NCBI GenBank assembly: GCA_964587725.1
Contig: CAZPLO010000030.1
Coordinates: forward strand, 1-14,025
Direction: 5' to 3'
Length of the DNA: 14,025 bases
Source: an uncultured archaeon
GTDB lineage: Archaea; Altiarchaeota; Altiarchaeia; IMC4; SCGC-AAA252-I15
The translations under genes and the position numbers were made by a program. The notes below the pieces were generated by a model. It saw only the letters and a program-made list of their open reading frames with translations, was not told the origin of the DNA and ran no database searches. Of the stretch, positions 252 to 14,025 are shown piece after piece (positions within the stretch are counted from its first letter, which is position 1; each line of letters opens with the position of its first letter).

Positions 252-3029
252 TTATTTGCCGAGTTTTTTGTTTATGGCTTCGAGTTCTTTTTTGATTTTT
301 TCTGCGGCGTCTAGTTCGCGGGCGTCTTCCTCCGGTTCCTCGGGGGGTTCCTCTGGTTTCAGGGTTTCCGGGGGTTTCTCCTGTTCGGGGGTTTTTTCGG
401 GTTCTTCCGCGGGTTTTTCCTCTGTCTGCGGCTGCTGGGCGGGTTTTTCAGGCTCCTCTTTTTCAGTGGGTTTGGTGCCTCCTTTGGCTAGCAGGGCGTC
501 CAGGCGCTTGCTTATGTCCTCCCGGGATTCGGGTTCCGGTGTCTGTTCCTGTTTTGTCTCCGGTTTTTCGGCGGGCGGTTTGTTTTCAGCGGCTTTCTCA
601 GCTTCCTCCTCGGACTCTGGTATTTCGGAGAGTATTTGGAGTAGCGGAGACTCCTCTTCCTGCGGGTGCTCCGGCTTCGGAGGCTGCTCCTCCGGCTTCG
701 GAGGCTGCTGCTCTTCCTTCTCCTCCGGCTCCGGCTCCTTCTCCTGCGGCTCCGGCTCCTCCTCATCCTTGGCGGGTTCTTCGGGGATGAGGGGGGTGTA
801 GTCTACTTCCAGCTCCTTCTTTGGCTTTTTCTTTCGGAGTCTAGAGTATATGAGGTATGCTGCCGCAGCCAGTATCAGTAGTGTTGCTGCGGCTGCCAGC
901 GGCAGGATTAGGGTGGAGATGTCGACGCCTTGTGTTTTCCTCTGCTCCTCTTCGGCTTCGAGTATGAGGTTGCCGGATTTGATGGCGTTGTCGTGGTCTT
1001 CTATGGTTCTGTAGAGTTGCCGGGCTTTGGCTGCGTAGTCTTTCGCCAATTCATACTGTTGGGCTGTGAGGTGTTCGAATGCCGTGGCGTAGTTTTGCTG
1101 CGCTTCCACTCCGGTGTTGCAGGTGGAGAGGAGTGTGGCTGCGGTCGCCTGGTTTCCGGTCTCACCCAGGTCGGCGTAGATGCCGAGTGCCTGCGTGGCC
1201 TGGTCGACGCAGCCGTGGTAGTTGCCTTCCTCGTATGCGGTTAGGGCGCGGCCGTAGTGTGACGCTGCCGTAGCCAGCCTCGCCTGTATCTCCAGCTGCT
1301 CCTCAATGCGTGACAGCAGCGTGTCGGCCGCCGTTATCCTTCCGCTGTCTCCTACGATGGCGTATGACTGCTTCGCCGACGTCGCGTGTTCCTTCGCGGC
1401 CTCGTAGTTTTCCTGCTGGTACAGCCGCAGCGCCTGGTCGTAGTTGTTGTTGGCGCTCCTGTATTCGACGGTGTTGTTGACGAGTTTCTCCGCCTTGAGT
1501 ATGTTGGCTTCGTCTTCCAGGGTGCGGTACATCTCCAATGCCTTCAATGCGTATATGCTGCCTTCAACGTAGTCTTCGGCGCGGTTGTATTCCAGGGCCT
1601 GCTGGTAGTAGCCCTGCGCGGTTATCTGGTCTATTGCGTCGTCCACCAGGTCTGTTGCCGCTGCCGCGTTCACTGTGTCGTCCAGTGACAGGTAGATGAG
1701 GTGGGCTTCCGCAGCCAACTCCCTTGTTGCTGGGTAGTCGCCTGCCGTGTAGTTTCGGCGGGCCTGCACCATGAGCTTGTCCGCCTGCACGTATTTAACG
1801 GAGGTGTTGGAGAGTTCCCTGGCCTTCCTCACCTGTTCGGTGTCGTTGAGTTCGGCGTAGATTTCCTGCGCCGCGAGGGCGTGGTTCCTCGCCTTGGAGA
1901 AGTTCCCGGAGGCGTAGTGCGCCAGAGCCTTCTGGAGGTTGTCGTCTGCCGTGAGGTCGCGGAGGTAGTCTTGGTTTATCCTGTATGCCGTGATTTTCCT
2001 AGCACCCAACACTATCAGGTTGGTTTCCCCCTCCCAGAGGTCGGCGGCGGCGAGTTCGACTATTGGATACCCTACTTCGTGGGTCCACTTCAGCCGCCCC
2101 ATGTGGTCTAACGCGTATACCGTGTCCGCTGCCGCTACGAACACTTCGGGGGTGTTGTCTCCGTCCAGGTCGCCTGCGGTCACGGTCGGCTTCACCACCC
2201 GGACGGTGGTGTTCCACATCAGTTTGCCGGCGGCGCTCAACGCAGTGACCTGATCGTCTTCCGAGACTGCGAGAACCTCCTTGAGCCCGTCCCGGTTTAT
2301 GTCTTCACCGTACACTGCGACGACGGTGTCGCCGGGGTTGTACCTCCACATCCTGGCGCCGGTGTTCTTGAGGGCGTGGACGTAGTTGAAGGAGCCGGCA
2401 ATTATCTCCGGCACCCCGTCTCTGTTCAGGTCTGACGCATGTACTGCGCCGACTGTGCCTTCGGCGGTGTACTTCCACCGGAGGGTGCCGTCGCTGTTCA
2501 GCGCGTACACTGCGCCATCACGGGTTCCGGAGATTATTTCGAGGCTGTCGTCGCCGCCGAGGTCTGCTGCATCGAGTGAGACGGAGTAGCCGTAGTCGCG
2601 GTGCACCCACTTCAGCTGGTTGTTCTGCAGGTTCGGGTTCCTCTCCAGCACGAACACGGGGGACGCGTACGGCGACATACCGAAGGAGCAGGTCTTCGCC
2701 TCCACCACGGAGCCGACGACTATCTCCGTGTAGCCGTTGCCGTCTACGTCGTCGACCACGAGTGCGTTGGGGCTGTTCTGCGGCCATATCACTGATATCT
2801 TGTTCCGCCAGATGAGGACTCCGTTGTTGTCTAGGAGGTATGCGTAGCTGCCTTGTTCGCTGAACAAACCCACGGTTATTTCCAGGCTGCCGTTGCCTTC
2901 GACGTCGCGGACCTCCAGTAGGTCGCCTCCCAGGTCTATGCTCCACGCCTCCGCCAGGGGGTCGTATGTGACTGCATCAGCGAGTGCCGACGCCAAGATT
3001 AGTATGACAGCAGCTTCCAGGACTTTCAT
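252..3029 (-). CDS. Type I membrane surface protein (925 aa): signal peptide, FG-GAP/PQQ-like beta-propeller, TPR-like helical repeats, one TM helix, acidic Pro-rich cytoplasmic tail
   Basis: Start re-called at ATG 3029 (MKVLEAAVILILASALADA, signal-peptide-like). Seven DxDxDG-like motifs (DVEGNG, DVDGNG, DLGGDD, DLNRDG, DINRDG, DLDGDN, DLWEGE), several followed by G-x-L-x-W; six helical repeats of about 55-60 aa; TM LILPLAAAATLLILAAAAYLIY followed by RLRKKKPKK; E/P/K-rich tail. Confidence 0.88.
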   Translation of the reverse strand: MKVLEAAVILILASALADAVTYDPLAEAWSIDLGGDLLEVRDVEGNGSLEITVGLFSEQGSYAYLLDNNGVLIWRNKISVIWPQNSPNALVVDDVDGNGYTEIVVGSVVEAKTCSFGMSPYASPVFVLERNPNLQNNQLKWVHRDYGYSVSLDAADLGGDDSLEIISGTRDGAVYALNSDGTLRWKYTAEGTVGAVHASDLNRDGVPEIIAGSFNYVHALKNTGARMWRYNPGDTVVAVYGEDINRDGLKEVLAVSEDDQVTALSAAGKLMWNTTVRVVKPTVTAGDLDGDNTPEVFVAAADTVYALDHMGRLKWTHEVGYPIVELAAADLWEGETNLIVLGARKITAYRINQDYLRDLTADDNLQKALAHYASGNFSKARNHALAAQEIYAELNDTEQVRKARELSNTSVKYVQADKLMVQARRNYTAGDYPATRELAAEAHLIYLSLDDTVNAAAATDLVDDAIDQITAQGYYQQALEYNRAEDYVEGSIYALKALEMYRTLEDEANILKAEKLVNNTVEYRSANNNYDQALRLYQQENYEAAKEHATSAKQSYAIVGDSGRITAADTLLSRIEEQLEIQARLATAASHYGRALTAYEEGNYHGCVDQATQALGIYADLGETGNQATAATLLSTCNTGVEAQQNYATAFEHLTAQQYELAKDYAAKARQLYRTIEDHDNAIKSGNLILEAEEEQRKTQGVDISTLILPLAAAATLLILAAAAYLIYSRLRKKKPKKELEVDYTPLIPEEPAKDEEEPEPQEKEPEPEEKEEQQPPKPEEQPPKPEHPQEEESPLLQILSEIPESEEEAEKAAENKPPAEKPETKQEQTPEPESREDISKRLDALLAKGGTKPTEKEEPEKPAQQPQTEEKPAEEPEKTPEQEKPPETLKPEEPPEEPEEDARELDAAEKIKKELEAINKKLGK
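669..709. repeat. 21-bp-period tandem repeat encoding QPPKPE twice in the low-complexity tail
   Basis: CTCCGGCTTCGGAGGCTGCT at 669-688 and 690-709. Confidence 0.8.
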
Positions 3030-3051
3030 TGTTAGATAGTGGCATACGGCC

Positions 3052-3061
3052 CTTATATATT
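3052..3061. promoter_or_regulatory. Putative shared bidirectional TATA box
   Basis: CTTATATATT lies in the middle of the 51-bp gap between divergent ATGs at 3029 (-) and 3081 (+), 20-30 nt from each; no SD motif before either start. Confidence 0.55.
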
Positions 3062-3080
3062 CCTCCTCAGAGTATGTATT

Positions 3081-3770
3081 ATGCGTCGTGGGGGAGCTGT
3101 TCAGGAGGGGGAGACCCTGGTTGTTCTGCCGGCGTACAACGAGGGGGGGGTGCTCTCTGAGACGCTGGAGAAGCTGCGAGAGAGCGTGAAAGCGGATCTG
3201 CTGGTGGTGGACGACGGCAGCTCGGACGATACGGCGGACATAGCGCGTGCCGCGGGCGCGAGGGTGGTCAGCCACGCCGTGAACCTGGGATTGGGGGCGG
3301 CGTTGTCCACCGGCCTGGAGGTCGCCCGCCGCGAAGGCTACGAGAGGATGGTTACGTTCGACGCCGACGGACAGCACAGCCCCGAAGACATAGGTAGGCT
3401 GCTGGAAGAACTCGGCGGCTGCGACGTCGTAATAGGCGTGCGGACGGTGCACGGCGAGCGGATGCCGCTGGTGAAGAAGATAGGGAACCACATACTGAAC
3501 ATTCTGACCGCGGTGGTGTTCCAGACATACTGCAGGGACAGCCAGAGCGGGCTGCGGGCGTTCAACCGGAAGGCGATCGATTCCCTGGAGTTGAAGGCCA
3601 ACAGGTATGAGGTGTCGTCTGAAATACTGTATGAGGCCGGGAGGAATGGTTTGACGGTGGGGGAGGTTCCGGTGGACGCCATATACACGGAGCATTCCAT
3701 GAGCAACGGCACCGGCGTGAAGGACGGTTTTAAGATACTGTGGCGTATGTTATTACACAGGGGCAGGTGA
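3081..3770 (+). CDS. GT2 family glycosyltransferase, DPM1-like (polyprenol-phosphate sugar synthase), 229 aa
   Basis: Motifs VVLPAYNE, VVDDGSSDDT, NLGLGAAL, FDADGQH, DSQSGLRAF typical of DPM1-like GT2; ATG at 3081 preferred over GTG 3039. Confidence 0.93.
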   Translation: MRRGGAVQEGETLVVLPAYNEGGVLSETLEKLRESVKADLLVVDDGSSDDTADIARAAGARVVSHAVNLGLGAALSTGLEVARREGYERMVTFDADGQHSPEDIGRLLEELGGCDVVIGVRTVHGERMPLVKKIGNHILNILTAVVFQTYCRDSQSGLRAFNRKAIDSLELKANRYEVSSEILYEAGRNGLTVGEVPVDAIYTEHSMSNGTGVKDGFKILWRMLLHRGR

Positions 3771-4116: not shown

Positions 4117-4632
4117 TTAATTGGAGCAGCTTCCAGCCAGTTTCTCGACGCCCGTGAACGACTTGCCTTCTACGCCGTGTTCGCGGTTGCTGTACTGGAA
4201 CGTCACATCGAACGAGTACGAGCCCCCGGATGTGCAGTTGAACGGCGCCGTGGCCTCCCACTTGTAGTAGTCGCCGGGCAGCAGGGTCAGGCCAAGCGCG
4301 GTGGTGCTGTCTCCGCCGTCTATGGAAACCCAGTCGACGGTGACCTGGTATTCCTTGTTGTTCTGCAGCACCAGGGTGCTGTTCTGGCTTGCAGACGTCT
4401 GGAATATCTCCCAGTCCATAATACCTATGTCCGCGGACTTCCAGTAGATAGCACCCTTCTTCTTGTACGTTGTCGCTGTTCCAATCTTGATGAAACCCGA
4501 TAGAACACCGACAGCAACCACCGCGATAACAATCGCGATAGCAAGAAGAACCAGATACTCTACAGACGTCTGCCCCTTCCTGCCGGTTCTGAACGCTTTC
4601 AACGATTTCATGTTTTTCCCCGAGCCAAACAC
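4117..4632 (-). CDS. Class III signal peptide (type IV pilin-like) protein, paralog 2
   Basis: RKG|QTSVEYLVLLAIAIVIAVVAVGVL prepilin cleavage motif with Q+1/E+5; beta-rich body with two Cys. Start is GTG 4632 or ATG 4611. Confidence 0.9.
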   Translation of the reverse strand: MFGSGKNMKSLKAFRTGRKGQTSVEYLVLLAIAIVIAVVAVGVLSGFIKIGTATTYKKKGAIYWKSADIGIMDWEIFQTSASQNSTLVLQNNKEYQVTVDWVSIDGGDSTTALGLTLLPGDYYKWEATAPFNCTSGGSYSFDVTFQYSNREHGVEGKSFTGVEKLAGSCSN

Positions 4633-4749: not shown

Positions 4750-5256
4750 TTATGCGGAGGTTGAGCAGGTTCCTGCTAGCTTCTCGACGCCCGTGAACGA
4801 CTTGTCGAGCACGGAGTGCTCCAGGTTGTCGTACTGGAAGGTTATCTCATACGAGTATGAGCCTCCCGCCGTACAGCTGAAGTTGCCGTTGTCGGTCTCC
4901 CACTTGTACGTGTCACCCGGTAGCAATGTCTGGGCTATGGCTATCGTGGATGTTCCGCCGTCGGTCGATATCCAGTCGATCCGAATCTGGTATTCCTTGT
5001 TGTTCTGGAATACCAAGGTACTGTTGGTCAAGGAGACATCGTATACCTCCCAGTCCATAATACCTATGTCCGCGGACTTCCAGTAGATAGCACCCTTCTT
5101 CTTGTACGTTGTCGCTGTTCCAATCTTGATGAAACCCGATAGAACACCGACAGCAACCACCGCGATAACAATCGCGATAGCAAGAAGAACCAGATACTCT
5201 ACAGACGTCTGTCCCTTCCTGTCGCTTTTTACTGCCTTTAAAGGTTTCATGTTCAT
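4750..5256 (-). CDS. Class III signal peptide (type IV pilin-like) protein, paralog 1
   Basis: Same RKG|QTSVEYLVLLAI motif; SD GGGGGTGA upstream (better spaced to ATG 5250 than 5256); two Cys at the same positions as paralog 2. Confidence 0.92.
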   Translation of the reverse strand: MNMKPLKAVKSDRKGQTSVEYLVLLAIAIVIAVVAVGVLSGFIKIGTATTYKKKGAIYWKSADIGIMDWEVYDVSLTNSTLVFQNNKEYQIRIDWISTDGGTSTIAIAQTLLPGDTYKWETDNGNFSCTAGGSYSYEITFQYDNLEHSVLDKSFTGVEKLAGTCSTSA

Positions 5257-5451: not shown

Positions 5452-6153
5452 TCAGCCCGGCTGCCAGAAGAGTTTCTCCTCAGGCGAGATCTTTATGCCG
5501 TTGTCGAATATGAAGGGCACTATCTTCCGGGAGTGGTCTGAGCCCCGCATCTTCAGCACCTCTATGGCGTTCTGCCGGACGTTCCTTATCTGGATATTGT
5601 AGAGTATGATGACGCCGTCGACCACGTATTCCTCGAAGCCTATGCCCAACGTGGAGGCGGGCATCCTCTCCGCCTCCAACGTCATGAGGCTGGTGCAGTT
5701 GTTTTTCCGCAGCCACTCGCAGAATTTGAGCAGGCTCATCTTCCGGTCGAACAGGTCTTTGACGATGATGTTGAACGTGCTCAGCGGATCTATCACGAAC
5801 CGCTTAGCGTCCATCGACTTTAGGGTGTCCCGTATTTCGCCGTAGTCTTCGCGGATGACCTGCATGACGTCCGACGGGTCCAGGCGTAGGACGGTCAACT
5901 TCTCCTGTTTTTCAAGCTTGTTCAAATCCCACCCGTACTGGCCCATGTACTGTTTCAGCATGCCGGGGGTCTCGTTGAAGCTTACGTAGACTCCATTTTC
6001 ATTATACTCAGTGGCGCCGTTGTACAGGTATTGTAGGCAGAGGGTGGTTTTCCCGCTGCCTGCGCCGCCCGCCACAATGGTGGAGGAGCCCTCCGGCAGC
6101 CCGCCCGAAAGCATCTCGTCCAGCCCCGGTATCCTGGTCTCAACCTTTTTCAT
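5452..6153 (-). CDS. Single-domain KaiC/RAD55-family RecA-like ATPase, 233 aa
   Basis: TRIPGLDEMLSGGLP start, Walker A GGAGSGKT, YVSFNE, Walker B RFVIDPL, VDGVIIL, EVLKMRG arginine-finger motif. Overlaps the upstream gene by 14 nt. Confidence 0.93.
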   Translation of the reverse strand: MKKVETRIPGLDEMLSGGLPEGSSTIVAGGAGSGKTTLCLQYLYNGATEYNENGVYVSFNETPGMLKQYMGQYGWDLNKLEKQEKLTVLRLDPSDVMQVIREDYGEIRDTLKSMDAKRFVIDPLSTFNIIVKDLFDRKMSLLKFCEWLRKNNCTSLMTLEAERMPASTLGIGFEEYVVDGVIILYNIQIRNVRQNAIEVLKMRGSDHSRKIVPFIFDNGIKISPEEKLFWQPG

Positions 6154-8530
6154 CGTTCGCGTATATGCCGGTTATGATATTTATTTCAGACTCTATTATA
6201 GTCTGCTGTTTCCTGGCCTCGTTCAACTGCTTCTCCATCACGTGCTTCTCATCCAACACCTTGATTATGTCCGCGTTCTTGGACTCGTATTCCTGGGACA
6301 TCCTGTTCTTCCGCTCCTCCAGCGTGGAAAGCTTCTCCTCCACCGCCACCCTCTCCTTAGAGGCTTTGTCCAGTTTCTTCCGGGCCTTCTTCAAATCCGC
6401 CTTGACGGCCCTGATCTGCTTTCTCTGGTTCTTACGCTGGTCTTTGAGCTCCTTCAGCCGCCGTTTGGCCTCTGTCACCCGCGTAGACTGCGCGGCAACC
6501 TCCGACTCAGCCAAGGGTATCTGCTCCTCCTCCTCTTTGAGTTTGCGGGCGAGGCTCTCCTTCTCCAGCCGTAGTTCGTTGTTCTCCTTCTCCAGCGCAT
6601 GGGCTTTCGTCTGCATCCCCACGTACTCCTCCTCCAGTGAGCTGACCTTCTCCCTGCATTCGCCGACGTAGTTTTCAGCAGCCTCCAGATCGGATTCAAC
6701 GGATTCCTGCACTCTGACGGCCTCGTCCAAGTCCGCCTTCAACCGGCTTTTCTCGTCGAGGAACCGGTCCATCTCCTGTTTTATGGGGTACAGGAACCGC
6801 ATCACCGTCAACCCGCCGGCCCACGACTTAATCTTCCGCTCCCGGTTCGCCTTCAACTCCTCGTCCTTGTGTATGAGCTCGGCTCTAGCGTCCTGTATCT
6901 GCTTCCGCAGCTCATCCATTTCGGACACGGTCTTCTTCACCTGCCGGCCGACCTTCGCAGACCTGGTTTTAATCCGCTTCCTCTCCGCCGCCGAATTCTT
7001 CAGCTTGGCTTCCAGGCGCTGCTGCTCCAGCTCCGCCCGGTCCAGCTGCTTCTTGAGCATTAGCCGCCCCTCCTCCGAGTAGCCTGCGGACCCCAGCTTG
7101 TCTTTCACGTGCTTCAGCTGCTTCTCCTTCACCTTCACTTCCTTGGCGGCGTCCTCCAGGGAATCCGACAGTTCCTTCACCTTCCCCTTGAGGCCGTCTT
7201 CCTTCTTCCCCAGGGACTTTATCTTTCCCTCTGCGGCGGTGATTTTCTCGGTCGCATCCCGTATGGACTCCCGCAGCACCTTCGGCAGCTCTATAATCAG
7301 CTTCTCCTCCTCGCTGCCGGATATCTCCCGCAGCTCCGACTCCAGGCTCTCCTTCTCCTTCATCACCTCGTCGAGTTTGGTCTTAAGCTGCTCCTCCTTC
7401 TCGACGACAGCCTGCATCTCCTTCCTGGCGTTGGATATCTCTGAACGGGTCTCCTCCAATGTCTTCTTCCCGGCCTTCAGCTGCTCCTCCAGACTGGATT
7501 CTTTGTCCTTCGACTCCGCCAGCGCCCTGGCTGCGTCGTCGAGCTCCGCGTACACGCTGAACTGGAGCTGAATCTCCCTGACACGGGATTTCGCGGCATC
7601 CAGGCCTTCCTTGATTTTCTTCTCCTTCTCTTCTTCTCCGCGGAGGCTGGACTCCAGCGACTTCCCCTCGGCCTCCAGCTCCGACAGCTCCCGCTCCTTC
7701 GCATCCAGCGTCTTCTCAGCCGCCTGTATGTCGTCCTTCAGCTTCTCCTTCTCCCTGCCTATCTCGTCGACGCGGTGGTAGAGGTTGTAGACTTCCTCTA
7801 TTGCCGCGCGTTCCTGTGACACGCGGTCGTATTCACCCGCTATTCTGCGCTGCTCCTCCAACGCCGACTCCAACTCCGCTCTTGCTGAAGAGACCTCCTT
7901 GTCCAACACCGTGCGCTTCCGTTCAAAGTCCGCTATTTTGTTGAGGTTCTCCCGGATGCCGTTGTCCGCCTTGAGGATTTTATCCGGCATCCTCCGCACC
8001 TTCCGTTTGGCGGACGCCAGGGACTTTTTCGCCGACTTCAGCTCCTTCTGAAGGTCCTTGTATTCTCCGTCGGCCTGCTTTATCTCTGACTCCAAATCCT
8101 GCAAGCCGATGTCGGCCTCCTCCTTCTGTCTAGCAAATGCGTCGACGGTGTCGCGGAGCTCTTCCTCAGCCTTCAACTTCGGGTTCAGCTGCTCCCGTAA
8201 CCCATCCTCCTCCTCTTCAACGGCGTCCAACGCCTCCCTGACCTTCGCCCGTTCGACCTCCACCGCCCGTATCCGCCTCTGAACTTCGAGGATGCCCTTG
8301 GACAGGTCTGTTATGGACGCTTTGACGTCGGCGAGCTCCTTCCGCAGGTCTGGGAGGTTGCCGGACTCCATCAGCGACTTCGACGGCTTCCGGATGAGCT
8401 TCGACAGATGCTGTATCCGCTTCTCCTCAGACCCCACATTAGAGGGAACCTTGTTCTTTCCCGTGCCGTGGGAGCCCTTGATTATGTCGGTCAACCGCTT
8501 AACCTTGTCGTCTCTGCCGGAGTCTTCCAT
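6140..8530 (-). CDS. Long coiled-coil protein, 796 aa, no ATPase head or TM segment
   Basis: Nearly continuous E/K/L/R-rich heptad pattern; SD GAGGGGTGA before ATG 8530; starts 1 nt after the upstream stop and overlaps the downstream gene. Confidence 0.88.
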   Translation of the reverse strand: MEDSGRDDKVKRLTDIIKGSHGTGKNKVPSNVGSEEKRIQHLSKLIRKPSKSLMESGNLPDLRKELADVKASITDLSKGILEVQRRIRAVEVERAKVREALDAVEEEEDGLREQLNPKLKAEEELRDTVDAFARQKEEADIGLQDLESEIKQADGEYKDLQKELKSAKKSLASAKRKVRRMPDKILKADNGIRENLNKIADFERKRTVLDKEVSSARAELESALEEQRRIAGEYDRVSQERAAIEEVYNLYHRVDEIGREKEKLKDDIQAAEKTLDAKERELSELEAEGKSLESSLRGEEEKEKKIKEGLDAAKSRVREIQLQFSVYAELDDAARALAESKDKESSLEEQLKAGKKTLEETRSEISNARKEMQAVVEKEEQLKTKLDEVMKEKESLESELREISGSEEEKLIIELPKVLRESIRDATEKITAAEGKIKSLGKKEDGLKGKVKELSDSLEDAAKEVKVKEKQLKHVKDKLGSAGYSEEGRLMLKKQLDRAELEQQRLEAKLKNSAAERKRIKTRSAKVGRQVKKTVSEMDELRKQIQDARAELIHKDEELKANRERKIKSWAGGLTVMRFLYPIKQEMDRFLDEKSRLKADLDEAVRVQESVESDLEAAENYVGECREKVSSLEEEYVGMQTKAHALEKENNELRLEKESLARKLKEEEEQIPLAESEVAAQSTRVTEAKRRLKELKDQRKNQRKQIRAVKADLKKARKKLDKASKERVAVEEKLSTLEERKNRMSQEYESKNADIIKVLDEKHVMEKQLNEARKQQTIIESEINIITGIYANDEKG

Positions 8531-8531
8531 G

Positions 8532-10265
8532 TCACCCCTCCCCTTCCGTCAGCTCCTGGAGCCGCTTCTCCATGGCCTTCTTCTTATCCAACACTTCCTT
8601 CAGCTTGCTCTCCGTCTCCTCGCGGGCCTGGGTTATGAACCCGAGCTCGTCCTCTACCTTCGCCTTCCGGTCGCGGACGTCCTCCAACTCCTCCTTCTTG
8701 CTGGCGCCCTCCTCCACCATCGACTTCAGCTCGTCCTTCAGCAGGTTGATTTCGGTCGCCACCGCCTCCCGGCGGCTGTCGAGGGATTCCAGTTTCTCCT
8801 TCGACTCCGCCACCTGCTTCTCACGCTTCGCCAGCACGTCCTTAAGATAAGGTGTGAGGTCTATGTAGAGTTCCCCGCCGCCCTCCACCAGAGACTGTAT
8901 CTTGTCCTCCAGGTTTTTCTTGCGGTCGAGTATCCTGTCTATGCGCTCCTTGATTTTGTCCTGGTCTTCGACCAGCTCACGATAGCGTTCCTCCTCCCCC
9001 CCACGGTCCTTCTCTATGTCCGCTAACGCGGACTGCTTGGCAGCCACCGCCCTTCGGACGCTGGTCTTCCGCTCCTCAATCTCCCGGACCTCAGACTTCG
9101 CCTGGTTCTCCTTCGTCAGCAAAAGATCCAGCCTCTTCCTGGACTCCCGGGATTGCTCCTCCTTCTCATGGACGACCTCGCGGAGGCGGAGCTGCTCGTT
9201 CAACAGATCCTTTATCTCCTCCCCCAGCTTATCCGGCAAATCGTTCATGTCCGCCACGATAATCTGCTTGTCGATGTGCTGCACCGTCGGACCCATGGAA
9301 CCGCCGCCAGCGCCGCCGGGACCGCCTTCCCCCCCCGCACCCCCTGCTGGGGGGGCTGCACCGCCCACTGAACGACCCCCTGAACCCTCGAATTTTATGT
9401 TCGACAACCCCTCCCGGAGGCCTTTCGCCAGACCTTTCTCGTCTATCTTCCCAGGCTCCATTTTGATGTTGGACAACCCCTCCTTCAGACCCTCCACCAA
9501 GCCCTCTTTGAAGTCTTCGAGGTAGCCGCCGGCGTCCATGTACTTCCTCGGGCCGGCGGGTCGCGACACGGTCACGCCCGGCTGCTGCTGCCACGCGAAC
9601 AGACTGCTTTCAATCCACTCCCCCGTCTGCCCCAACGGAAGCTTCAGCACGCTTATCTTACGCACCCCCTTGTCGAACCCGAACTCCAGCACCGAATCGC
9701 ACATCATCTTCAACGTCTCCTCGGTCTGGGGGTCGTGGAGGTCACGCTGCAGTATGAACGTGCCCGTGAACCCCGCCGACGTTATCCTGCTTATGTGCAC
9801 CTTCAGGAACTCCTCGCACGTCGACGGCCTATTGTAAAGCAGCAGCGTGGATACGGAGTCGAAAACCACCAAACCCTGGCCCTTCACCTCCGACAGCGCC
9901 CGCATAAGCATCCGGTTCAACTCGTTCAAGTTGACGGCGGATGTGCAGTTTATCACGTACGGGTCGTTCAACCCCTTGCCGGTGACCTGCTCCGAATACG
10001 CGTCTATGAACCGCAGGAGGTTATGGTCCTGGAAGCTGCGGTAGTCTACCTTGAAGTACTCCATCTTCTCCCGTATCGACAGCGGGCTCTCATCCAAACA
10101 AATCCATATGCAGGGGAGGCTGTTCTTCAGGAACTCCCGCGCCAGCGTCAGAGAGAAGGTGGTCTTCCCCGAAGCAACCGAACCGTATAGAAGGGTGGAA
10201 ACCCCCAAGGGAAACTCCTTCACTTCCCCGCCTATGTCTAACCGTACGATACGCACCAGATTCAC
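8532..10265 (-). CDS. KaiC/RAD55-like ATPase domain fused via a Gly-rich linker to a C-terminal coiled coil, 577 aa
   Basis: Walker A GSVASGKT, WICLDE, LRFIDAYS, Walker B VVFDSVSTL, CDSVLEF in the first ~225 aa; GGAGGEGGPGGAGGG linker; ~230 aa of heptads. Start GTG 10265 or GTG 10256 (SD GGGGGTGA fits the latter). Confidence 0.9.
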   Translation of the reverse strand: MNLVRIVRLDIGGEVKEFPLGVSTLLYGSVASGKTTFSLTLAREFLKNSLPCIWICLDESPLSIREKMEYFKVDYRSFQDHNLLRFIDAYSEQVTGKGLNDPYVINCTSAVNLNELNRMLMRALSEVKGQGLVVFDSVSTLLLYNRPSTCEEFLKVHISRITSAGFTGTFILQRDLHDPQTEETLKMMCDSVLEFGFDKGVRKISVLKLPLGQTGEWIESSLFAWQQQPGVTVSRPAGPRKYMDAGGYLEDFKEGLVEGLKEGLSNIKMEPGKIDEKGLAKGLREGLSNIKFEGSGGRSVGGAAPPAGGAGGEGGPGGAGGGSMGPTVQHIDKQIIVADMNDLPDKLGEEIKDLLNEQLRLREVVHEKEEQSRESRKRLDLLLTKENQAKSEVREIEERKTSVRRAVAAKQSALADIEKDRGGEEERYRELVEDQDKIKERIDRILDRKKNLEDKIQSLVEGGGELYIDLTPYLKDVLAKREKQVAESKEKLESLDSRREAVATEINLLKDELKSMVEEGASKKEELEDVRDRKAKVEDELGFITQAREETESKLKEVLDKKKAMEKRLQELTEGEG

Positions 10266-10440
10266 CCCCTAAATACCCCGCCGCACCCCCCTCAGTGTAC
10301 TGCCGCGGGGTTATGTATTGGACAATGGTTTAAATATACACCGGAGGTTACTATGCCCGCCCGCTGGAGGGAACCAGCCCCTGAACGTATTTATATTAGG
10401 GTAAACGTATTATTTACAAAACTTTTTAAGGTGATGTGAG

Positions 10441-10656
10441 ATGGCAACTACACCAACGGACGAAGTCAAGGTCTTTGAGATTGAATGGGAGGGTTTCTTC
10501 GGGAACATGCATTTGATGAACATCGGGATACCGACGTTCGAGGACCTCTGCGAAATAGCGATTATTATGAGCAGGCCCGTCCTGAAGGAGAAAGGCAGGA
10601 ACATATACCACGTCGTCGACGCCTCAAGCGTCTACACGTACAAGAAGAGGAAATAG
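10441..10656 (+). CDS. Small hypothetical protein, 71 aa
   Basis: ATG preceded by SD AAGGTGA, TATA-like TTTATAT at 10390-10396, fills an otherwise empty gap, followed by a hairpin/T-tract. Confidence 0.72.
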   Translation: MATTPTDEVKVFEIEWEGFFGNMHLMNIGIPTFEDLCEIAIIMSRPVLKEKGRNIYHVVDASSVYTYKKRK

Positions 10657-10662
10657 GTTTCT

Positions 10663-10710
10663 AAAACGGGGTGGGTTGCAGACACCCCTTTCTTTAAATT
10701 TATCTTTATT
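10663..10710. terminator. Putative bidirectional terminator between convergent genes
   Basis: GGGGTG(10668-10673)/CACCCC(10683-10688) stem with TTTCTTT after it on + and TTTT after it on -. Confidence 0.55.
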
Positions 10711-11292
10711 CTATGGGAACAGGAACACCCGCTGGTCTATCAGCGCGTTCGGCGTCGTGAACCCGATGCGCCGTATGCTGCCCTGCGACGGAATAATCTG
10801 TATAACAAGCTTCTCGTCGGAGCCGATGGGTGTGGCGAGTGAAATGTTTATGACGGCGCTGTCTCCGAGGTTGACGTATCCGTCCAGCGGCGAACCCGAC
10901 CGCTGCAGGTAGTAGACGTCGTAGGTTCCGCTGCCGGCGGCGGTGGAGTAGCGGAGGGTCTGGAAGGATGTGCGGCCGTCGATTGTTATGACGGTGGTGT
11001 TGAGGTTGATGGGGTCCGAGCCGGGCTTCAATTTCACCAGCATCTCCAGCTGTTCCACTTGGCCGTCGTCGCTGGCGTCCGAGCCGACGATGGAGTAGAC
11101 GTTCAAGCCGCTGGCTATCTCAGCCTCCGTCCCCTTCATAGCCGTCACCGAACGCTGCTCCAGGCCGCCTCCGGAGCCTATCAAGACGGCGGCCGCGACT
11201 GCGGAGACTACGATAACCGCTATGAAGATTATCAGCATCCCTATCCCCATCAGGCCCTTCCGTCCTCTGCTCCGGTTTTTCATATGCAACAC
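10711..11292 (-). CDS. arlB: Archaellin (archaeal flagellin)
   Basis: RKG|LMGIGMLIIFIAVIVVSAVAAAVLI N-terminal helix, LEQRS, VKLKPGSDPINL, conserved in archaellins. Start GTG 11292 or ATG 11283. Confidence 0.93.
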   Translation of the reverse strand: MLHMKNRSRGRKGLMGIGMLIIFIAVIVVSAVAAAVLIGSGGGLEQRSVTAMKGTEAEIASGLNVYSIVGSDASDDGQVEQLEMLVKLKPGSDPINLNTTVITIDGRTSFQTLRYSTAAGSGTYDVYYLQRSGSPLDGYVNLGDSAVINISLATPIGSDEKLVIQIIPSQGSIRRIGFTTPNALIDQRVFLFP

Positions 11293-11299
11293 GCTTTTT

Positions 11300-11902
11300 T
11301 TACGTCGGCCACAGCGAGACGCTCTCCTGCGTCATGCTGTCCGGCGTGTAAAACTCTATCTGGGTGTACGTCCCCACACGCGGGATCATCTTAATCCGCA
11401 CCAGCTGGTTCTCGCTTATCTCCGGACTCAGCTGGAATATTATCTTCGCCACGTCACCGCGGTTCAGGTAGCCGTTCTCGTGGTTGGTTCCGTTCTGTAT
11501 GTAGTATACCACGTAAGCGGTCGTGGTCGCCGCCGTCGAGTCGGCCCCGATGGTCGTGTTGTATGTCAGACTGTACGACGCCGTCTCCGTGTCCACGGTT
11601 ATTATGGTGTTGTTCAGGTTGATTCCCTGGGAACCCGACTGAAGCCGCACCATCACCTTGAAGTCGCCCACCTTATGCGGTGTCCCGTCGCTGGCGCTCG
11701 CATCCGAGGCCACGACCGTCATGGCCTCTATCCCCGAGGCGATGCTCTCCTCCGTCTGCGAGCCCGTGATAAGGGCTTTCTGCTGGAGGCTGCCGCCTGT
11801 GGTGATAAGGACCGACGCCGCAACCGCTGCGATGAGGATTATCGCAATGAATATTATCAACGCTCCTATCCCCATCATACCTTTCCTTTCCTTAGCCCTC
11901 AT
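11300..11902 (-). CDS. arlB: Archaellin (archaeal flagellin), 200 aa
   Basis: RKG|MMGIGALIIFIAIILIAAVAASVLITTGGSLQQKA; SD GAGGTG 5 nt before ATG 11902. Confidence 0.95.
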   Translation of the reverse strand: MRAKERKGMMGIGALIIFIAIILIAAVAASVLITTGGSLQQKALITGSQTEESIASGIEAMTVVASDASASDGTPHKVGDFKVMVRLQSGSQGINLNNTIITVDTETASYSLTYNTTIGADSTAATTTAYVVYYIQNGTNHENGYLNRGDVAKIIFQLSPEISENQLVRIKMIPRVGTYTQIEFYTPDSMTQESVSLWPT

Positions 11903-11943
11903 TTGCACACCTCTGTGATATATTGATTTACTTTACCTCTTTT

Positions 11944-12624
11944 TTAAGTTGTCGGCCACAGCAAAACCCGCTGTTCCACCATGGAATCCGGAGTCATGAA
12001 CTCCAGCTGCGTCATAGCCCCCGTACGGGGTATGAGTGTGATGCGCGACCGTATGTTTTCGCCCAGCTGCCCGTTTATGTTGAATTTGAGCTCCGCCACG
12101 TCCCCCCGGTTCATGTAGCCGTCCTCGTGTATGGGCGCCTCCTTCACGTACGACACCACGAACGTGGACGTCCCCGACGCCGTGGCGGACTGCGGTACGG
12201 TGCCGTTGTACAGGAAGTTCTGGCTCGCCAGCGGCGTGTCCAACGTCACCACCGTGTTGTTCAAACTCAGCGGGTCGCTGCCTGCCTGAAGCCGCACCAT
12301 CACGTTCAAGCTGGTGACTGCGTGCGGAGTCCCCGATGAGCTGGCGTCGGACCCGGTTATCTTCACCGTCTCCACGCCGGAGCCCACACCCTCCCGCGCC
12401 TCGTTGCCGGTTATCAACGCCTTCTGCTGGAGGTTCCCGCCCGTGGATATCAAAACGAAAGCCGCTATGGCAGAGATTAGAACAATGGCTATGAATATTA
12501 TCAACGCCCCTATACCCATCAACCCCCGGTTCACCTTGTCGTGGCGGGACAGAACCAACAGTATCAGCAACACTATAGCGCCGGCACTGACTGTGCCTCT
12601 GCCGGGTTTCTTCAGCTGGGCCAT
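11944..12624 (-). CDS. arlB: Archaellin with an extended hydrophobic leader, 226 aa
   Basis: NRG|LMGIGALIIFIAIVLISAIAAFVLISTGGNLQQKA; SD GGAGGT before ATG 12624 places an extra hydrophobic stretch ahead of the cleavage site. Confidence 0.92.
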   Translation of the reverse strand: MAQLKKPGRGTVSAGAIVLLILLVLSRHDKVNRGLMGIGALIIFIAIVLISAIAAFVLISTGGNLQQKALITGNEAREGVGSGVETVKITGSDASSSGTPHAVTSLNVMVRLQAGSDPLSLNNTVVTLDTPLASQNFLYNGTVPQSATASGTSTFVVSYVKEAPIHEDGYMNRGDVAELKFNINGQLGENIRSRITLIPRTGAMTQLEFMTPDSMVEQRVLLWPTT

Positions 12625-12720
12625 CCGCAACCTCCACGTACCCAGGCAACCACCTCAAAAACAGCCAACCAGCCAGACCCCCCAAGCCCACGCATGAGCT
12701 GTTACATAATGTATTTGAGG

Positions 12721-12744: not shown

Positions 12745-13815
12745 TCACGGTATTAGGGGGCTGCTGCGGCTGTCGTGGCGGTCTATTTTCTTCTGAATCT
12801 CCAACCCGACAGTGTCCACCACCTCCCTCGTAACATTGTACCGCTCCTGCAGGTGCTTCAGGAACCCCTGTATGTCGTCGTTGGGGTTCTCTATCGACGA
12901 CGTTATCGCATATGCTATGTAGGCTGCGAGCTCCTCCCCCCATTTGTCGCCGTAGTATTCCTTCACGAAGTGGTCTTTAACGCCGCCTATGTGCTTCACC
13001 ACCGCGTCGAAACGCGCCCCCAATTCCCTGGACGCGAATGCGTCGTATTTTTTGTCGGGCGCGTTGCGGTGCTTCACCGGCGTGAAAATCGGTATCGTAG
13101 CGTCCTCCAATATGGCAATCTTCATGGTGTCCCAGTGCTTCTCCACCGCCCCCGTCGCGTACAGCAGCATCATCACGTCCTTCACGTACACGTCGAGGAA
13201 GAACCGTTTGCCGATGTAGTCTATGCCGTCGTGTGTTATGTTCAATTCGATGTTGTTGAGCATCTCCAGCAGCAGCTCGTGCATGCCCTGGTATTTCTTG
13301 TTGGTTACGTCGGTGGTCCTCGACACGGATATGAACAGCAGCTTGAAGAAGAAGCGGGATATCTCCCGGCCCATGAAAATCAGCGGGAACAGCGTGTCCA
13401 GGAACCGCATCCGCTCCCTGCTGGCGAGCTTCTCGTCCAGGCTGCCCATCCAGTTATCGTCTCTGCTTAACTCCTTGAATGTGGCCATCGCCGCCTCCGC
13501 CTCGTAGTCGGTGAAGGAGTAGCGGTTGACGATGGAGTGGATTACGTTGACGTTAGCCTTGAACGGATTCCGCGGCTTCCCGTCAACATAGTATCGTTTG
13601 CTCCTGGACAGGAAACCCATCTTCACGAACTTGTTCAGCTTCTTCCGGTACGCCTCCTGGCTCTGCTTCTTCAACAGGATGTCCTCCTTACGGAGCTGAT
13701 ACGACCAGGTCTCTTCCTTCAGCAGCCGGAGGAAGAAGCGTGTGAGGGCGTCCTGGGTGTCGGCGTCCATGTGTTTGACCTTGAGAAAGAGTTCCCTGGC
13801 TGTGTAATCCGTCAA
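12745..13815 (-). CDS. Hypothetical protein, 356 aa, with a winged-HTH-like N-terminal region (putative regulator)
   Basis: TTG start after GGGGGGA SD-like motif. SQEAYRKKLNKFVKMGFLSRSKRYYVDGKPRNPFKAN resembles the recognition helix plus wing (Y-x-x-x-L-x-x-h-x-x-x-G-h-h...G-[RK]-P) of archaeal wHTH proteins. Product call is by eye only. Confidence 0.75.
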   Translation of the reverse strand: MTDYTARELFLKVKHMDADTQDALTRFFLRLLKEETWSYQLRKEDILLKKQSQEAYRKKLNKFVKMGFLSRSKRYYVDGKPRNPFKANVNVIHSIVNRYSFTDYEAEAAMATFKELSRDDNWMGSLDEKLASRERMRFLDTLFPLIFMGREISRFFFKLLFISVSRTTDVTNKKYQGMHELLLEMLNNIELNITHDGIDYIGKRFFLDVYVKDVMMLLYATGAVEKHWDTMKIAILEDATIPIFTPVKHRNAPDKKYDAFASRELGARFDAVVKHIGGVKDHFVKEYYGDKWGEELAAYIAYAITSSIENPNDDIQGFLKHLQERYNVTREVVDTVGLEIQKKIDRHDSRSSPLIP

Positions 13816-13975: not shown

Positions 13976-14025
13976 TTATGGCCAGAGCGTTATACGCTTG
14001 TCGGTGACTACGTCCGGTGTGGTGA
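13976..14025 (-). CDS. arlB: C-terminal end of a fourth archaellin (truncated by the window edge; absent from the ORF track)
   Basis: Minus strand translates TTPDVVTDKRITLWP*, matching the ends of the other archaellins (TTPNALIDQRVFLFP, YTPDSMTQESVSLWPT, MTPDSMVEQRVLLWPTT). Confidence 0.85.
   Translation of the reverse strand, partial: TTPDVVTDKRITLWP

Follow-up and report, generated by a model that had tools for sequence, protein, structure and literature searches.

The locus described in this work raises the question of what two KaiC-like ATPases and a very long coiled-coil protein, encoded side by side, are doing between the archaellin and the pilin genes of an uncultured archaeon. The DNA that we analysed (the window) is a complete contig of 14,025 nt, contig C30 of the metagenome-assembled genome (MAG) G000, which belongs to the Altiarchaeota and amounts to 1.56 Mb in 48 contigs at 92% completeness; according to the open reading frame (ORF) calls, nearly all the real genes of the window are found on the minus strand. 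Three of them, named here KaiCCC, CC796 and KaiC233 (Table 1), form the operon under study. An earlier reading of the sequence (the original prediction) had suggested that this operon may be an undescribed system, and no described counterpart was matched in Pfam, NCBIfam, PADLOC or the literature searched. We conclude that the operon is probably a lineage-specific accessory of an archaellum supercluster, present in one family of Alti-2-type Altiarchaeota, and the explanation that we favour, with a probability of about 0.45, is that its products regulate or scaffold the archaellum, and perhaps pili, in an ATP-dependent manner. In the following, related genomes are indicated with G-numbers (G001-G027 and so on), extracted loci or contigs with L-numbers, and the contigs within a genome with C-numbers.

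The three genes had been reported as coupled, with a gap of 1 nt and an overlap of 14 nt, and both coordinates and junctions agree with what can be read from the sequence: the TGA stop codon of KaiCCC is separated by one base from the ATG of CC796, and CC796 and KaiC233 share an ATG...TGA overlap of 14 nt. Beyond KaiC233 a gap of 195 nt follows. In six other loci, on the basis of our own ORF calls, the operon junctions vary from a 4-nt overlap to a 13-nt gap. The GC content of the operon (0.55-0.60) is similar to that of the neighbouring genes. Upstream, the spacer between the archaellin gene arlB3 and KaiCCC measures about 445 nt in the window (10266-10710) and about 340-600 nt in the six loci aligned out of six. 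A TATA-like box is present in it on the minus strand (10327-10339), 62-74 nt before the GTG of the operon and at a position that is conserved in the alignment of loci, and a second one lies on the plus strand about 45 nt before a divergent ORF of 71 amino acids (aa); both are putative promoters. With a TATA-like box of its own, tight or overlapping junctions and a conserved divergent gene beside it, the three-gene set is a self-contained operon.

The protein types named in the original prediction, a KaiC-like ATPase fused to a coiled coil, a coiled coil of 796 aa and a stand-alone KaiC-like ATPase, were all confirmed with Pfam and AlphaFold2. The simplest of them is KaiC233, which, judging from its sequence, is an intact single-domain KaiC-type NTPase. 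It matches PF06745 along residues 4-226 of 233 with 198.4 bits (gathering threshold 26.6, E 1.4e-58), and the nearest solved structures are KaiC (E 1e-55) and then PH0186/PH0284. All seven orthologues (7/7) keep unchanged the segment G29-T37 (Walker A), the residues E61 and D122 and the K201/R203 motif; these we take to correspond to the Walker A Lys/Thr, the catalytic Glu after strand 2, the Walker B Asp and the Lys/Arg sensor of KaiC. It should be noted that KaiC233 is not a two-domain circadian KaiC (CI plus CII, about 500 aa), as it consists of one domain of 233 aa; KaiC chains match it in two stretches, the best of which is the first half of KaiC. KaiC233 also falls below the ArlH model NF052589 (52.5 bits, cut-off 215) and below NF006799 (169 bits, cut-off 408).

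The N-terminal part of KaiCCC appears from its conserved residues to be a divergent but catalytically intact KaiC-like NTPase. PF06745 is matched at residues 18-180 (62.9 bits, E 3.8e-17, same threshold), DUF7504 also matches, and AlphaFold2 gives a RecA-like domain at 1-205 with a predicted local distance difference test (pLDDT) score of about 90. In Foldseek this domain finds PH0284 first (E 5e-14, TMt 0.73), followed by SSO2452 and the CI domain of KaiC, with FlaH (4yds) at rank 15. Across 17 aligned sequences K31 of the P-loop, D55 and D133 (Walker B) are invariant, and E56 is kept in at least 90%. A disordered segment follows (212-337 in the model), which is variable, rich in Gly, Pro and Gln and bordered on both sides by short conserved motifs; the tail is then made of two long helices, 340-456 and 468-571, joined by a conserved loop of 11 residues. 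We infer that these helices would fold as an antiparallel hairpin about 17 nm long. KaiCCC remains far below the ArlH model (18.6 bits, cut-off 215). Its tail has no match to MCPsignal in Pfam, and the weak profile matches that it gives to chains of methyl-accepting chemotaxis proteins (E 8e-5 to 1.6e-4) appear among myosin and SMC coiled coils. In one of the loci, L046 (1247-2991), the KaiCCC gene is divided into two overlapping ORFs, either by a frameshift or by a sequencing error.

CC796 is almost wholly helical in the AlphaFold2 model, with helices at 59-404, 417-481, 486-571 and 581-794, and 40% of the residues are Glu, Lys or Leu. The pLDDT score dips at 245-260, 405-416 and 570-585. Since a loop at 405-416 is combined with the paired dips at 245-260 and 570-585, the pattern fits a protein that probably turns back on itself near residue 410 as a hairpin, the two arms of which would break at corresponding points (an 'elbow'), position 250 being paired with 575. 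Taking about 346 residues as paired, with a rise of about 0.15 nm per residue, our own arithmetic gives an estimated rod of about 50 nm. Five residues, P182, P416, W570, P582 and P672, are invariant across eight orthologues, and motifs at the N- and C-terminus are conserved too. In Foldseek the model is matched best by MukB, JetC, condensin Smc2/4, Smc5/6, the cohesin elbow and Rad50 (E 1e-8 to 1e-3), at template modelling (TM) scores that are low, about 0.1-0.27, with about 0.13 for the top hits. In Pfam CC796 obtains only sub-threshold coiled-coil matches; there is no match to SMC_N or to an AAA head, hence no halves of an ABC head, and no match to a hinge, the apex being a loop of 12 residues around the invariant P416. 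With the NCBIfam SMC model the score is 99.6 bits (cut-off 567), and the SMC and Rad50 matches are confined to coiled-coil regions. A Gly/Lys-rich stretch near the N-terminus was considered as a P-loop and rejected, being absent from the conserved positions of the orthologues.

The searches with ArlH, ArlCDE and SMC profiles that had been proposed for the three proteins were thus carried out, and none of the three passes a cut-off; in Pfam no FlaC_arch or Arch_fla_DE domain is found in any of them. We also predicted a complex of KaiC233 with residues 1-260 of KaiCCC and 1-75 of CC796, which obtained a score of 0.10 (mark 0.32) in a run without controls and weighs neither way on binding.

Where the operon stands with respect to the archaellum genes needs some explanation. 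It had been proposed that it occupies the place where the motor genes normally sit, as arlC, D, E, F, G, I and J are missing from the window. Pfam and NCBIfam do find none of these genes, nor arlH, among the window proteins, but this absence is in part an artefact of assembly, because the window is the whole of a contig. The arlCDE, F and G genes are upstream on contig C26 and arlH-arlI-arlJ on contig C1, so that the supposed replacement of the motor genes is produced by a contig break. On C26 (L052, 11141-15961) there are an ArlC-D/E fusion (FlaC_arch plus three Arch_fla_DE domains), three ArlF/G-like proteins, a membrane protein with DUF5752 and the N-terminus of an archaellin, arlB0, which runs off the contig end. 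Because the order DUF5752 protein, arlB0, 356-aa gene is intact in the related loci L045, L048, L022 and L023, the end of C26 most likely abuts the end of the window at 14025, as suggested by this comparison of gene orders; the upstream arlCDE side is collinear in G016:C49, G004:C20 and G012:C90. The gene order of C26 recurs in L045, L048, L022 and L067-L069. Accordingly, the operon forms part of an archaellum supercluster, in the order arlCDE, F, G, DUF5752 gene, arlB0, 356-aa gene, arlB1-3, 71-aa ORF, operon, pilins, GT2 glycosyltransferase and 932-aa gene. The search for arlI and arlJ elsewhere in the genome succeeded: they were found beside arlH on C1 (38246-42378), with ArlH (C1:41650-42378) at 225.8 bits against a cut-off of 215, ArlI (FlaI) at 716 against 550 and ArlJ at E 5e-128. 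An ORF of 111 aa just upstream of this set encodes a coiled coil that looks FlaC-like by eye and is unconfirmed by any family model.

Back to back with the arlH-arlI-arlJ set, at about 43987-51290 of C1, there is a locus for the assembly of type IV pili, which comprises pilin-like genes and the genes of a PilB-like ATPase and of two T2SSF proteins, so that the two filament machineries are adjacent on C1 too. The same locus holds a KaiC gene with a helical neighbour of 106 aa. In the relative G024 (L072 = G024:C10, 13906-14933) an oppositely oriented KaiC gene (241 aa) and a helical gene of 97 aa are inserted between arlH and arlI, an arrangement that recalls cirA of Haloferax and the KaiC pair on C1. 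In the third ArlF/G-like protein of C26 the C-terminus is extended by a Cys-rich part, which reaches a much greater length in L045 and L068.

ArlCDE is the usual docking site for the output of chemotaxis. CheW was found in 0/21 genomes of family f1 and CheF over its cut-off also in 0/21, these being incomplete MAGs, with control genomes positive. As far as gene content in such incomplete MAGs indicates, the archaella of the family have the ArlCDE 'switch' protein and no recognised chemotaxis input.

The conservation of this arrangement was evaluated on ten KaiCCC loci: the window, the genomes G004, G016, G012 and G005 (where the locus is split on two contigs) and the metagenome contigs L043, L044, L045, L046 and L048. 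Three further contig matches were left out as duplicates of G016, G004 and G012, and L024 and L044, with less than 500 nt upstream, are uninformative for the archaellin side. Synteny across related MAGs had been suggested as a check of the link with filament genes, and it bears the link out: archaellins are located upstream of the operon in 8/8 informative loci, and KaiC233 is followed by two to four tandem pilin genes in 8/8 loci that reach that far. CC796 comes after KaiCCC in every one of the ten, and the GT2 gene and the 932-aa gene are next in all six loci that extend to them. The order archaellins, operon, pilins is thus kept despite a strong divergence of CC796 (24-44% identity among loci) and of KaiCCC (39-57%); KaiC233 is better conserved (61-80%), and the 71-aa ORF is the best-conserved protein of the locus (70-92%).

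The family itself is small. A word-seeded search of 5.8 billion clustered proteins gave 18 relatives at E<=1e-10, and in an exhaustive HMMER search of 1.84 billion representatives the fusion family amounts to 12 proteins at E<=1e-30, of which six are full-length, five are fragments and one is an ATPase domain standing alone. Below these 12 come generic KaiC-like proteins of about 230 aa, with 119 bits at most, and no further protein matching both ATPase and coiled coil above this generic level was found in the exhaustive search. The CC796 profile recovered five homologues. In the source records the orthologous proteins are labelled 'Candidatus Altiarchaeota archaeon' or 'Altiarchaeales'. A feature search in the Atlas returned Thermoplasmatota KaiC/DUF7504 clusters of 392-598 aa (scores 0.81-0.84), to be taken as leads only. 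Among 61 genomes of the phylum, the KaiCCC fusion is present in five, which belong to four genera of one family; G023, a genome of a different family, has the ATPase domain as a separate protein.

Concerning the relation with archaella, we considered G000 with its 40 nearest relatives, 41 genomes in total. ArlH over the cut-off and archaellins (PF01917) co-occur in the same 11 genomes. Orthologues of the module are found in 5 of these 11 and in none of the 30 genomes without an archaellum, so that homologous modules do not occur mostly away from filament loci or in genomes that lack archaella. Four of the five module-bearing genomes also have arlCDE, the exception being G005, which is assembled in 410 contigs. 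Three archaellated members of the family, G001, G013 and G020, seem to lack the module, and in each of them arlCDE is also undetected; contig C13 of G001 ends within a pilin gene beside a GT2 gene and a 932-aa-type gene. Since arlCDE is missing too and the contig breaks at this point, a reading of G001 and G013 as genuinely without the module was given up, and the absences in G001, G013 and G020 are best read as assembly or binning gaps. MAG contigs break repeatedly in archaellin or pilin genes, as seen at the end of G001:C13 (L071, 17844-18005) and in G000 at C8:49424-49594 and C26:15778-15948, and for this reason presence or absence calls for the locus in MAGs are unreliable. Homologues from sister family f5, 25-31% identical, were examined as well and set aside as ordinary KaiC paralogues with no archaellins nearby.

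The favoured explanation starts from what is observed here, that is the gene structure, the domains, the conservation of catalytic residues, the position, the narrow distribution and the restriction to genomes that encode an archaellum. As regards mechanism, the roles put forward in the original prediction, a scaffold, a polar anchor or a swim/stick toggle, found no support in the results obtained, and the following steps are proposed conditionally. KaiC233 would probably form a hexamer and switch according to its nucleotide or phosphorylation state, in the way put forward for archaeal KaiC 'hubs', ArlH and CirA. In KaiCCC the flexible linker would tether a second KaiC-like NTPase to the coiled-coil hairpin of about 17 nm, and CC796 would fold back as an antiparallel rod of about 50 nm, similar to an SMC or MukB arm, headless and with both conserved termini at one end. 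Together the three proteins would build a cytoplasmic assembly of ATPases and rods, able to control or position the archaellum machinery on the side of ArlCDE, ArlH and ArlI and, perhaps, the adjacent pilins of the Epd type, with a presumable effect on motility or adhesion.

Several observations weigh against an explanation of this kind. The sister-family genomes G022, G024 and G027 possess complete and compact arl clusters without the module, which is therefore dispensable for an archaellum. G023, which has no ArlH and no archaellin, encodes a stand-alone KaiCCC-type ATPase domain, 53% identical, beside a KaiC, so the ATPase pair as such is not tied to archaella; this cluster (L025 = G023:C25, 4282-6507), composed of a KaiC, a 148-aa protein and the KaiCCC-type ATPase and found also on the near-identical contig L047, may represent the ancestral state of this pair of ATPases. 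Moreover, the collinearity between genera extends tens of kb past the locus in both directions: the genes of G004 downstream of the 932-aa-type gene map to C25 of G000 and the upstream ones to C26. Adjacency is for this reason weak evidence of selection and may reflect descent. The genomes with the module are all close kin within one family, and their loci are not independent. Finally, the hairpin of CC796 is read from the pattern of secondary structure and pLDDT in AlphaFold2 and from Foldseek matches with low TM-scores.

The extended synteny and the ATPase pair of the archaellum-less G023 are also what one would expect if the operon were a KaiC signalling or cytoskeletal module unrelated to filaments, engaged in cell shape, division, DNA organisation or stress, whose adjacency to them was simply inherited. 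About 20 KaiC-like genes are spread over many contigs of G000, and the homologues of CC796 are labelled 'chromosome segregation ATPase' in source records, an automatic name, which would go in the same direction. However, CC796 has neither ABC head nor hinge, and a canonical SMC is encoded elsewhere in the genome, on C8. The full module is restricted to archaellum genomes, it vanishes together with arlCDE from incomplete assemblies, and KaiC genes recur in the arl and type IV pilus loci of relatives and of other archaea. On balance we consider a role unrelated to filaments unlikely, even if it is the alternative that survives best.

Another explanation keeps the link with the archaellum and removes the regulation: the rods of CC796 and KaiCCC would have a passive, structural part as an organiser or anchor at the pole, either a plate similar to the polar cap or tethers joining such a plate to the motor, and the KaiC domains would serve for assembly or turnover only. 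Long coiled coils make up CC796 and the tail of KaiCCC, the operon lies within the archaellum supercluster, and the estimated 50-nm rod is of the same order as the gap of 35-44 nm between motor and polar cap in Pyrococcus and Thermococcus, reported in a review that describes the protein composition of the cap as unknown (Jarrell et al. 2021, PMC10117864). On the other hand, polar caps are widespread in euryarchaea and a family limited to one small clade cannot be a general cap protein; all the catalytic residues are kept in both ATPase domains, which points to an active role, and no membrane-binding or Arl-binding feature was identified in the module proteins. A purely structural anchor seems to us improbable. 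It is also possible to imagine a chemotaxis-independent device for both control and anchoring, in which KaiC-set rods tie the ArlCDE/ArlH ring to a sub-membrane platform and switch between swimming and pilus attachment; the nucleotide or phosphorylation state of the KaiC domains would then set the assembly of the 50-nm CC796 rods and of the 17-nm KaiCCC hairpins. We regard this combination as a long shot; if true, it would be a rod machine functionally analogous to those of the SMC type but with RecA heads, and its proteins would be the first components of a polar-cap-like structure to be named. Anti-phage defence or a mobile element of the Wadjet or Lamassu kind was rejected as very improbable, since the weak PADLOC matches of CC796 to JetC and LmuB (E 1e-12 to 4e-4) span coiled-coil arms only and signature proteins are otherwise unmatched, KaiCCC is unmatched in PADLOC, where KaiC233 matches mad8 weakly and in part (E 3.2e-6), Pfam and NCBIfam find neither a nuclease nor a kleisin nor an ABC head, the GC content resembles that of the neighbouring genes and the chromosomal context is the same in all loci, even if JetC and Lamassu also appear among the Foldseek matches of CC796.

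The remaining features of the window are collected in Table 1. Of the four archaellins counted in the original prediction three are complete and the fourth is a stub of 15 codons at the contig edge, arlB0, which precedes the 356-aa gene also in L022, L023, L045 and L048; the two pilins are indeed two proteins with class III signal peptides. The 71-aa ORF has 21 homologues, all from the same clade, and weakly resembles the C-terminal part of DUF5305, at E 3.9e-5 and without reaching the cut-off; its product could be a partner or a regulator of the operon. Orthologues of the 356-aa protein, 52-73% identical, hold the same position in L022, L023, L026, L045 and L048, that is in every locus reaching it, and this position suggests a possible archaellin-specific factor or regulator; the Atlas search gave nothing usable for it, with all scores at or below 0.84 and recognition below the mark.

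The GT2 protein scores 167 bits with NF058614 and 119 bits with AglJ, each below its cut-off. The 932-aa protein is composed of an N-terminal FG-GAP/beta-propeller part, a helical repeat region, one transmembrane helix and an acidic Pro-rich tail; homologues of it are also found beside the arl cluster of G027 and at the end of contig C13 of G001. In the sister-family locus L073 (G027:C6; 1-2924, 17299-18342) an FG-GAP/beta-propeller membrane protein and a GT2 flank the arl cluster. That the FG-GAP protein recurs with the GT2 suggests that their conserved role is the glycosylation or anchoring of surface filaments.

Table 1. Position, strand and basis of assignment of the features found in the window
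Feature	Position	Strand	Basis
932-aa membrane protein	252..3050	-	PF25292, PF13517, PF01839
GT2 glycosyltransferase, PpgS/AglJ-like polyprenyl-phosphate sugar synthase	3039..3770	+	PF00535, E 3.9e-24
Second pilin-like protein, class III signal peptide	4117..4632	-	PF04021, E 8.4e-7
Pilin-like protein, class III signal peptide	4750..5256	-	PF04021, E 7.8e-7
KaiC233, single-domain KaiC-family ATPase, 233 aa	5452..6153	-	PF06745, 198 bits
CC796, coiled-coil protein, 796 aa	6140..8530	-	AlphaFold2 helices; Foldseek, SMC-type arms
KaiCCC, KaiC-like ATPase::disordered linker::predicted coiled-coil hairpin, 577 aa	8532..10265	-	PF06745 and DUF7504
Divergent intergenic region with A/T-rich TATA-like boxes	10266..10440	.	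Sequence read
Conserved 71-aa ORF (P0019), divergent from operon	10441..10656	+	Codon-periodic block, 6/6 aligned loci
Archaellin arlB3	10711..11292	-	PF01917, E 1.7e-26
Archaellin arlB2	11300..11908	-	PF01917, E 1.7e-26
Archaellin arlB1 (true start probably internal to ORF)	11944..12630	-	PF01917, E 2.6e-27
356-aa protein between arlB0 and arlB1	12745..13815	-	No Pfam/NCBIfam match
Fourth archaellin arlB0, last 15 codons and stop, cut by contig end	13981..14025	-	Resembles arlB1/arlB2 C-termini

The regulation and the anchoring of the archaellum are poorly understood, and among the KaiC-like 'hub' ATPases encoded near archaellum or pilus genes CirA (PMC10983859) is the sole example studied genetically. 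The operon offers three defined proteins, or four if the 71-aa neighbour is counted, and in this set KaiC ATPases are hard-wired to long rods within an archaellum cluster. These proteins can be expressed and imaged without culturing the host, so that the idea of a KaiC acting through a coiled-coil scaffold becomes testable; the family is confined to a small uncultured clade and what is learned from it may be lineage-specific. With respect to the host, archaella have been said to be lacking in Altiarchaeota (PMC8407392). The 11 of 41 related genomes with ArlH and archaellins contradict this statement and agree with Bird et al. (2016, PMC4975002), who included 'flagellar proteins' in their list for the core genome of Alti-2.

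The theme of KaiC-type ATPases at archaellum and pilus loci is already known. Makarova et al. (2016, PMC4858521) reported KaiC ATPases (arCOG01171, 01174, 01175) as strongly associated with archaellum and type IV pilus loci and predicted an alpha-helical partner in one KaiC case. The linkage assumed in the original prediction is thus real in this locus, and as a general phenomenon it had already been published, both in that survey and for CirA (PMC10983859). What is new is the architecture, that is the KaiC fusion with a predicted coiled-coil hairpin, the headless rod resembling an SMC arm, the second KaiC and the conserved 71-aa neighbour. In the literature searched, on KaiC, archaella and motility in Altiarchaeota and on KaiC, coiled coils and type IV pili, the operon is undescribed, the supplementary KaiC arCOG tables of PMC4858521 being outside the scope of this search.

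Among known systems the nearest in setting is CirA, a KaiC-like protein encoded in the arl cluster of Haloferax that represses motility and arl transcription; its deletion leads to hypermotility and higher arl transcripts, and suppressors relieving the motility defect that a pilin deletion causes fall in cirA (PMC10983859). CirA is a single-domain KaiC ATPase among archaellum genes, with its own transcription unit, and KaiC233, also a single-domain KaiC within an archaellum cluster, shares domain type and setting; CirA is genetically tied to archaella and to type IV pilins, and KaiC233 lies between such genes. CirA, however, stands alone and in another phylum, whereas KaiC233 is coupled to a KaiC::coiled-coil fusion and to a rod of 800 aa. 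ArlH (FlaH), which has ArlX and ArlCDE as its scaffolds, is likewise a KaiC-like ATPase, working at the motor within a ring of coiled-coil or helical scaffold (PMC5019145; PMC10117864). KaiC233 and KaiCCC fall below its cut-off, and the true ArlH and the true ArlCDE are encoded on C1 and C26. The KaiC proteins linked to type IV pili (arCOG01171-01175) find a parallel in the KaiC and small helical pairs beside the arl and pilus genes on C1 and inside the arl cluster of G024; no KaiC::coiled-coil fusion or partner resembling an SMC arm is described for them in PMC4858521, its supplements aside. The arms of SMC, MukB, JetC and Rad50 are long intramolecular antiparallel coiled coils with conserved breaks, the geometry predicted for CC796, and are its best Foldseek matches, but CC796 has no ABC head, hinge domain or kleisin partner, and the ATPases adjacent to it are of the RecA/KaiC type. 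PH0284, PH0186 and SSO2452, lastly, are the best structural and sequence matches for both ATPase domains; they are stand-alone proteins, and the titles listed for them name no function and no coiled-coil extension of the kind that distinguishes KaiCCC.

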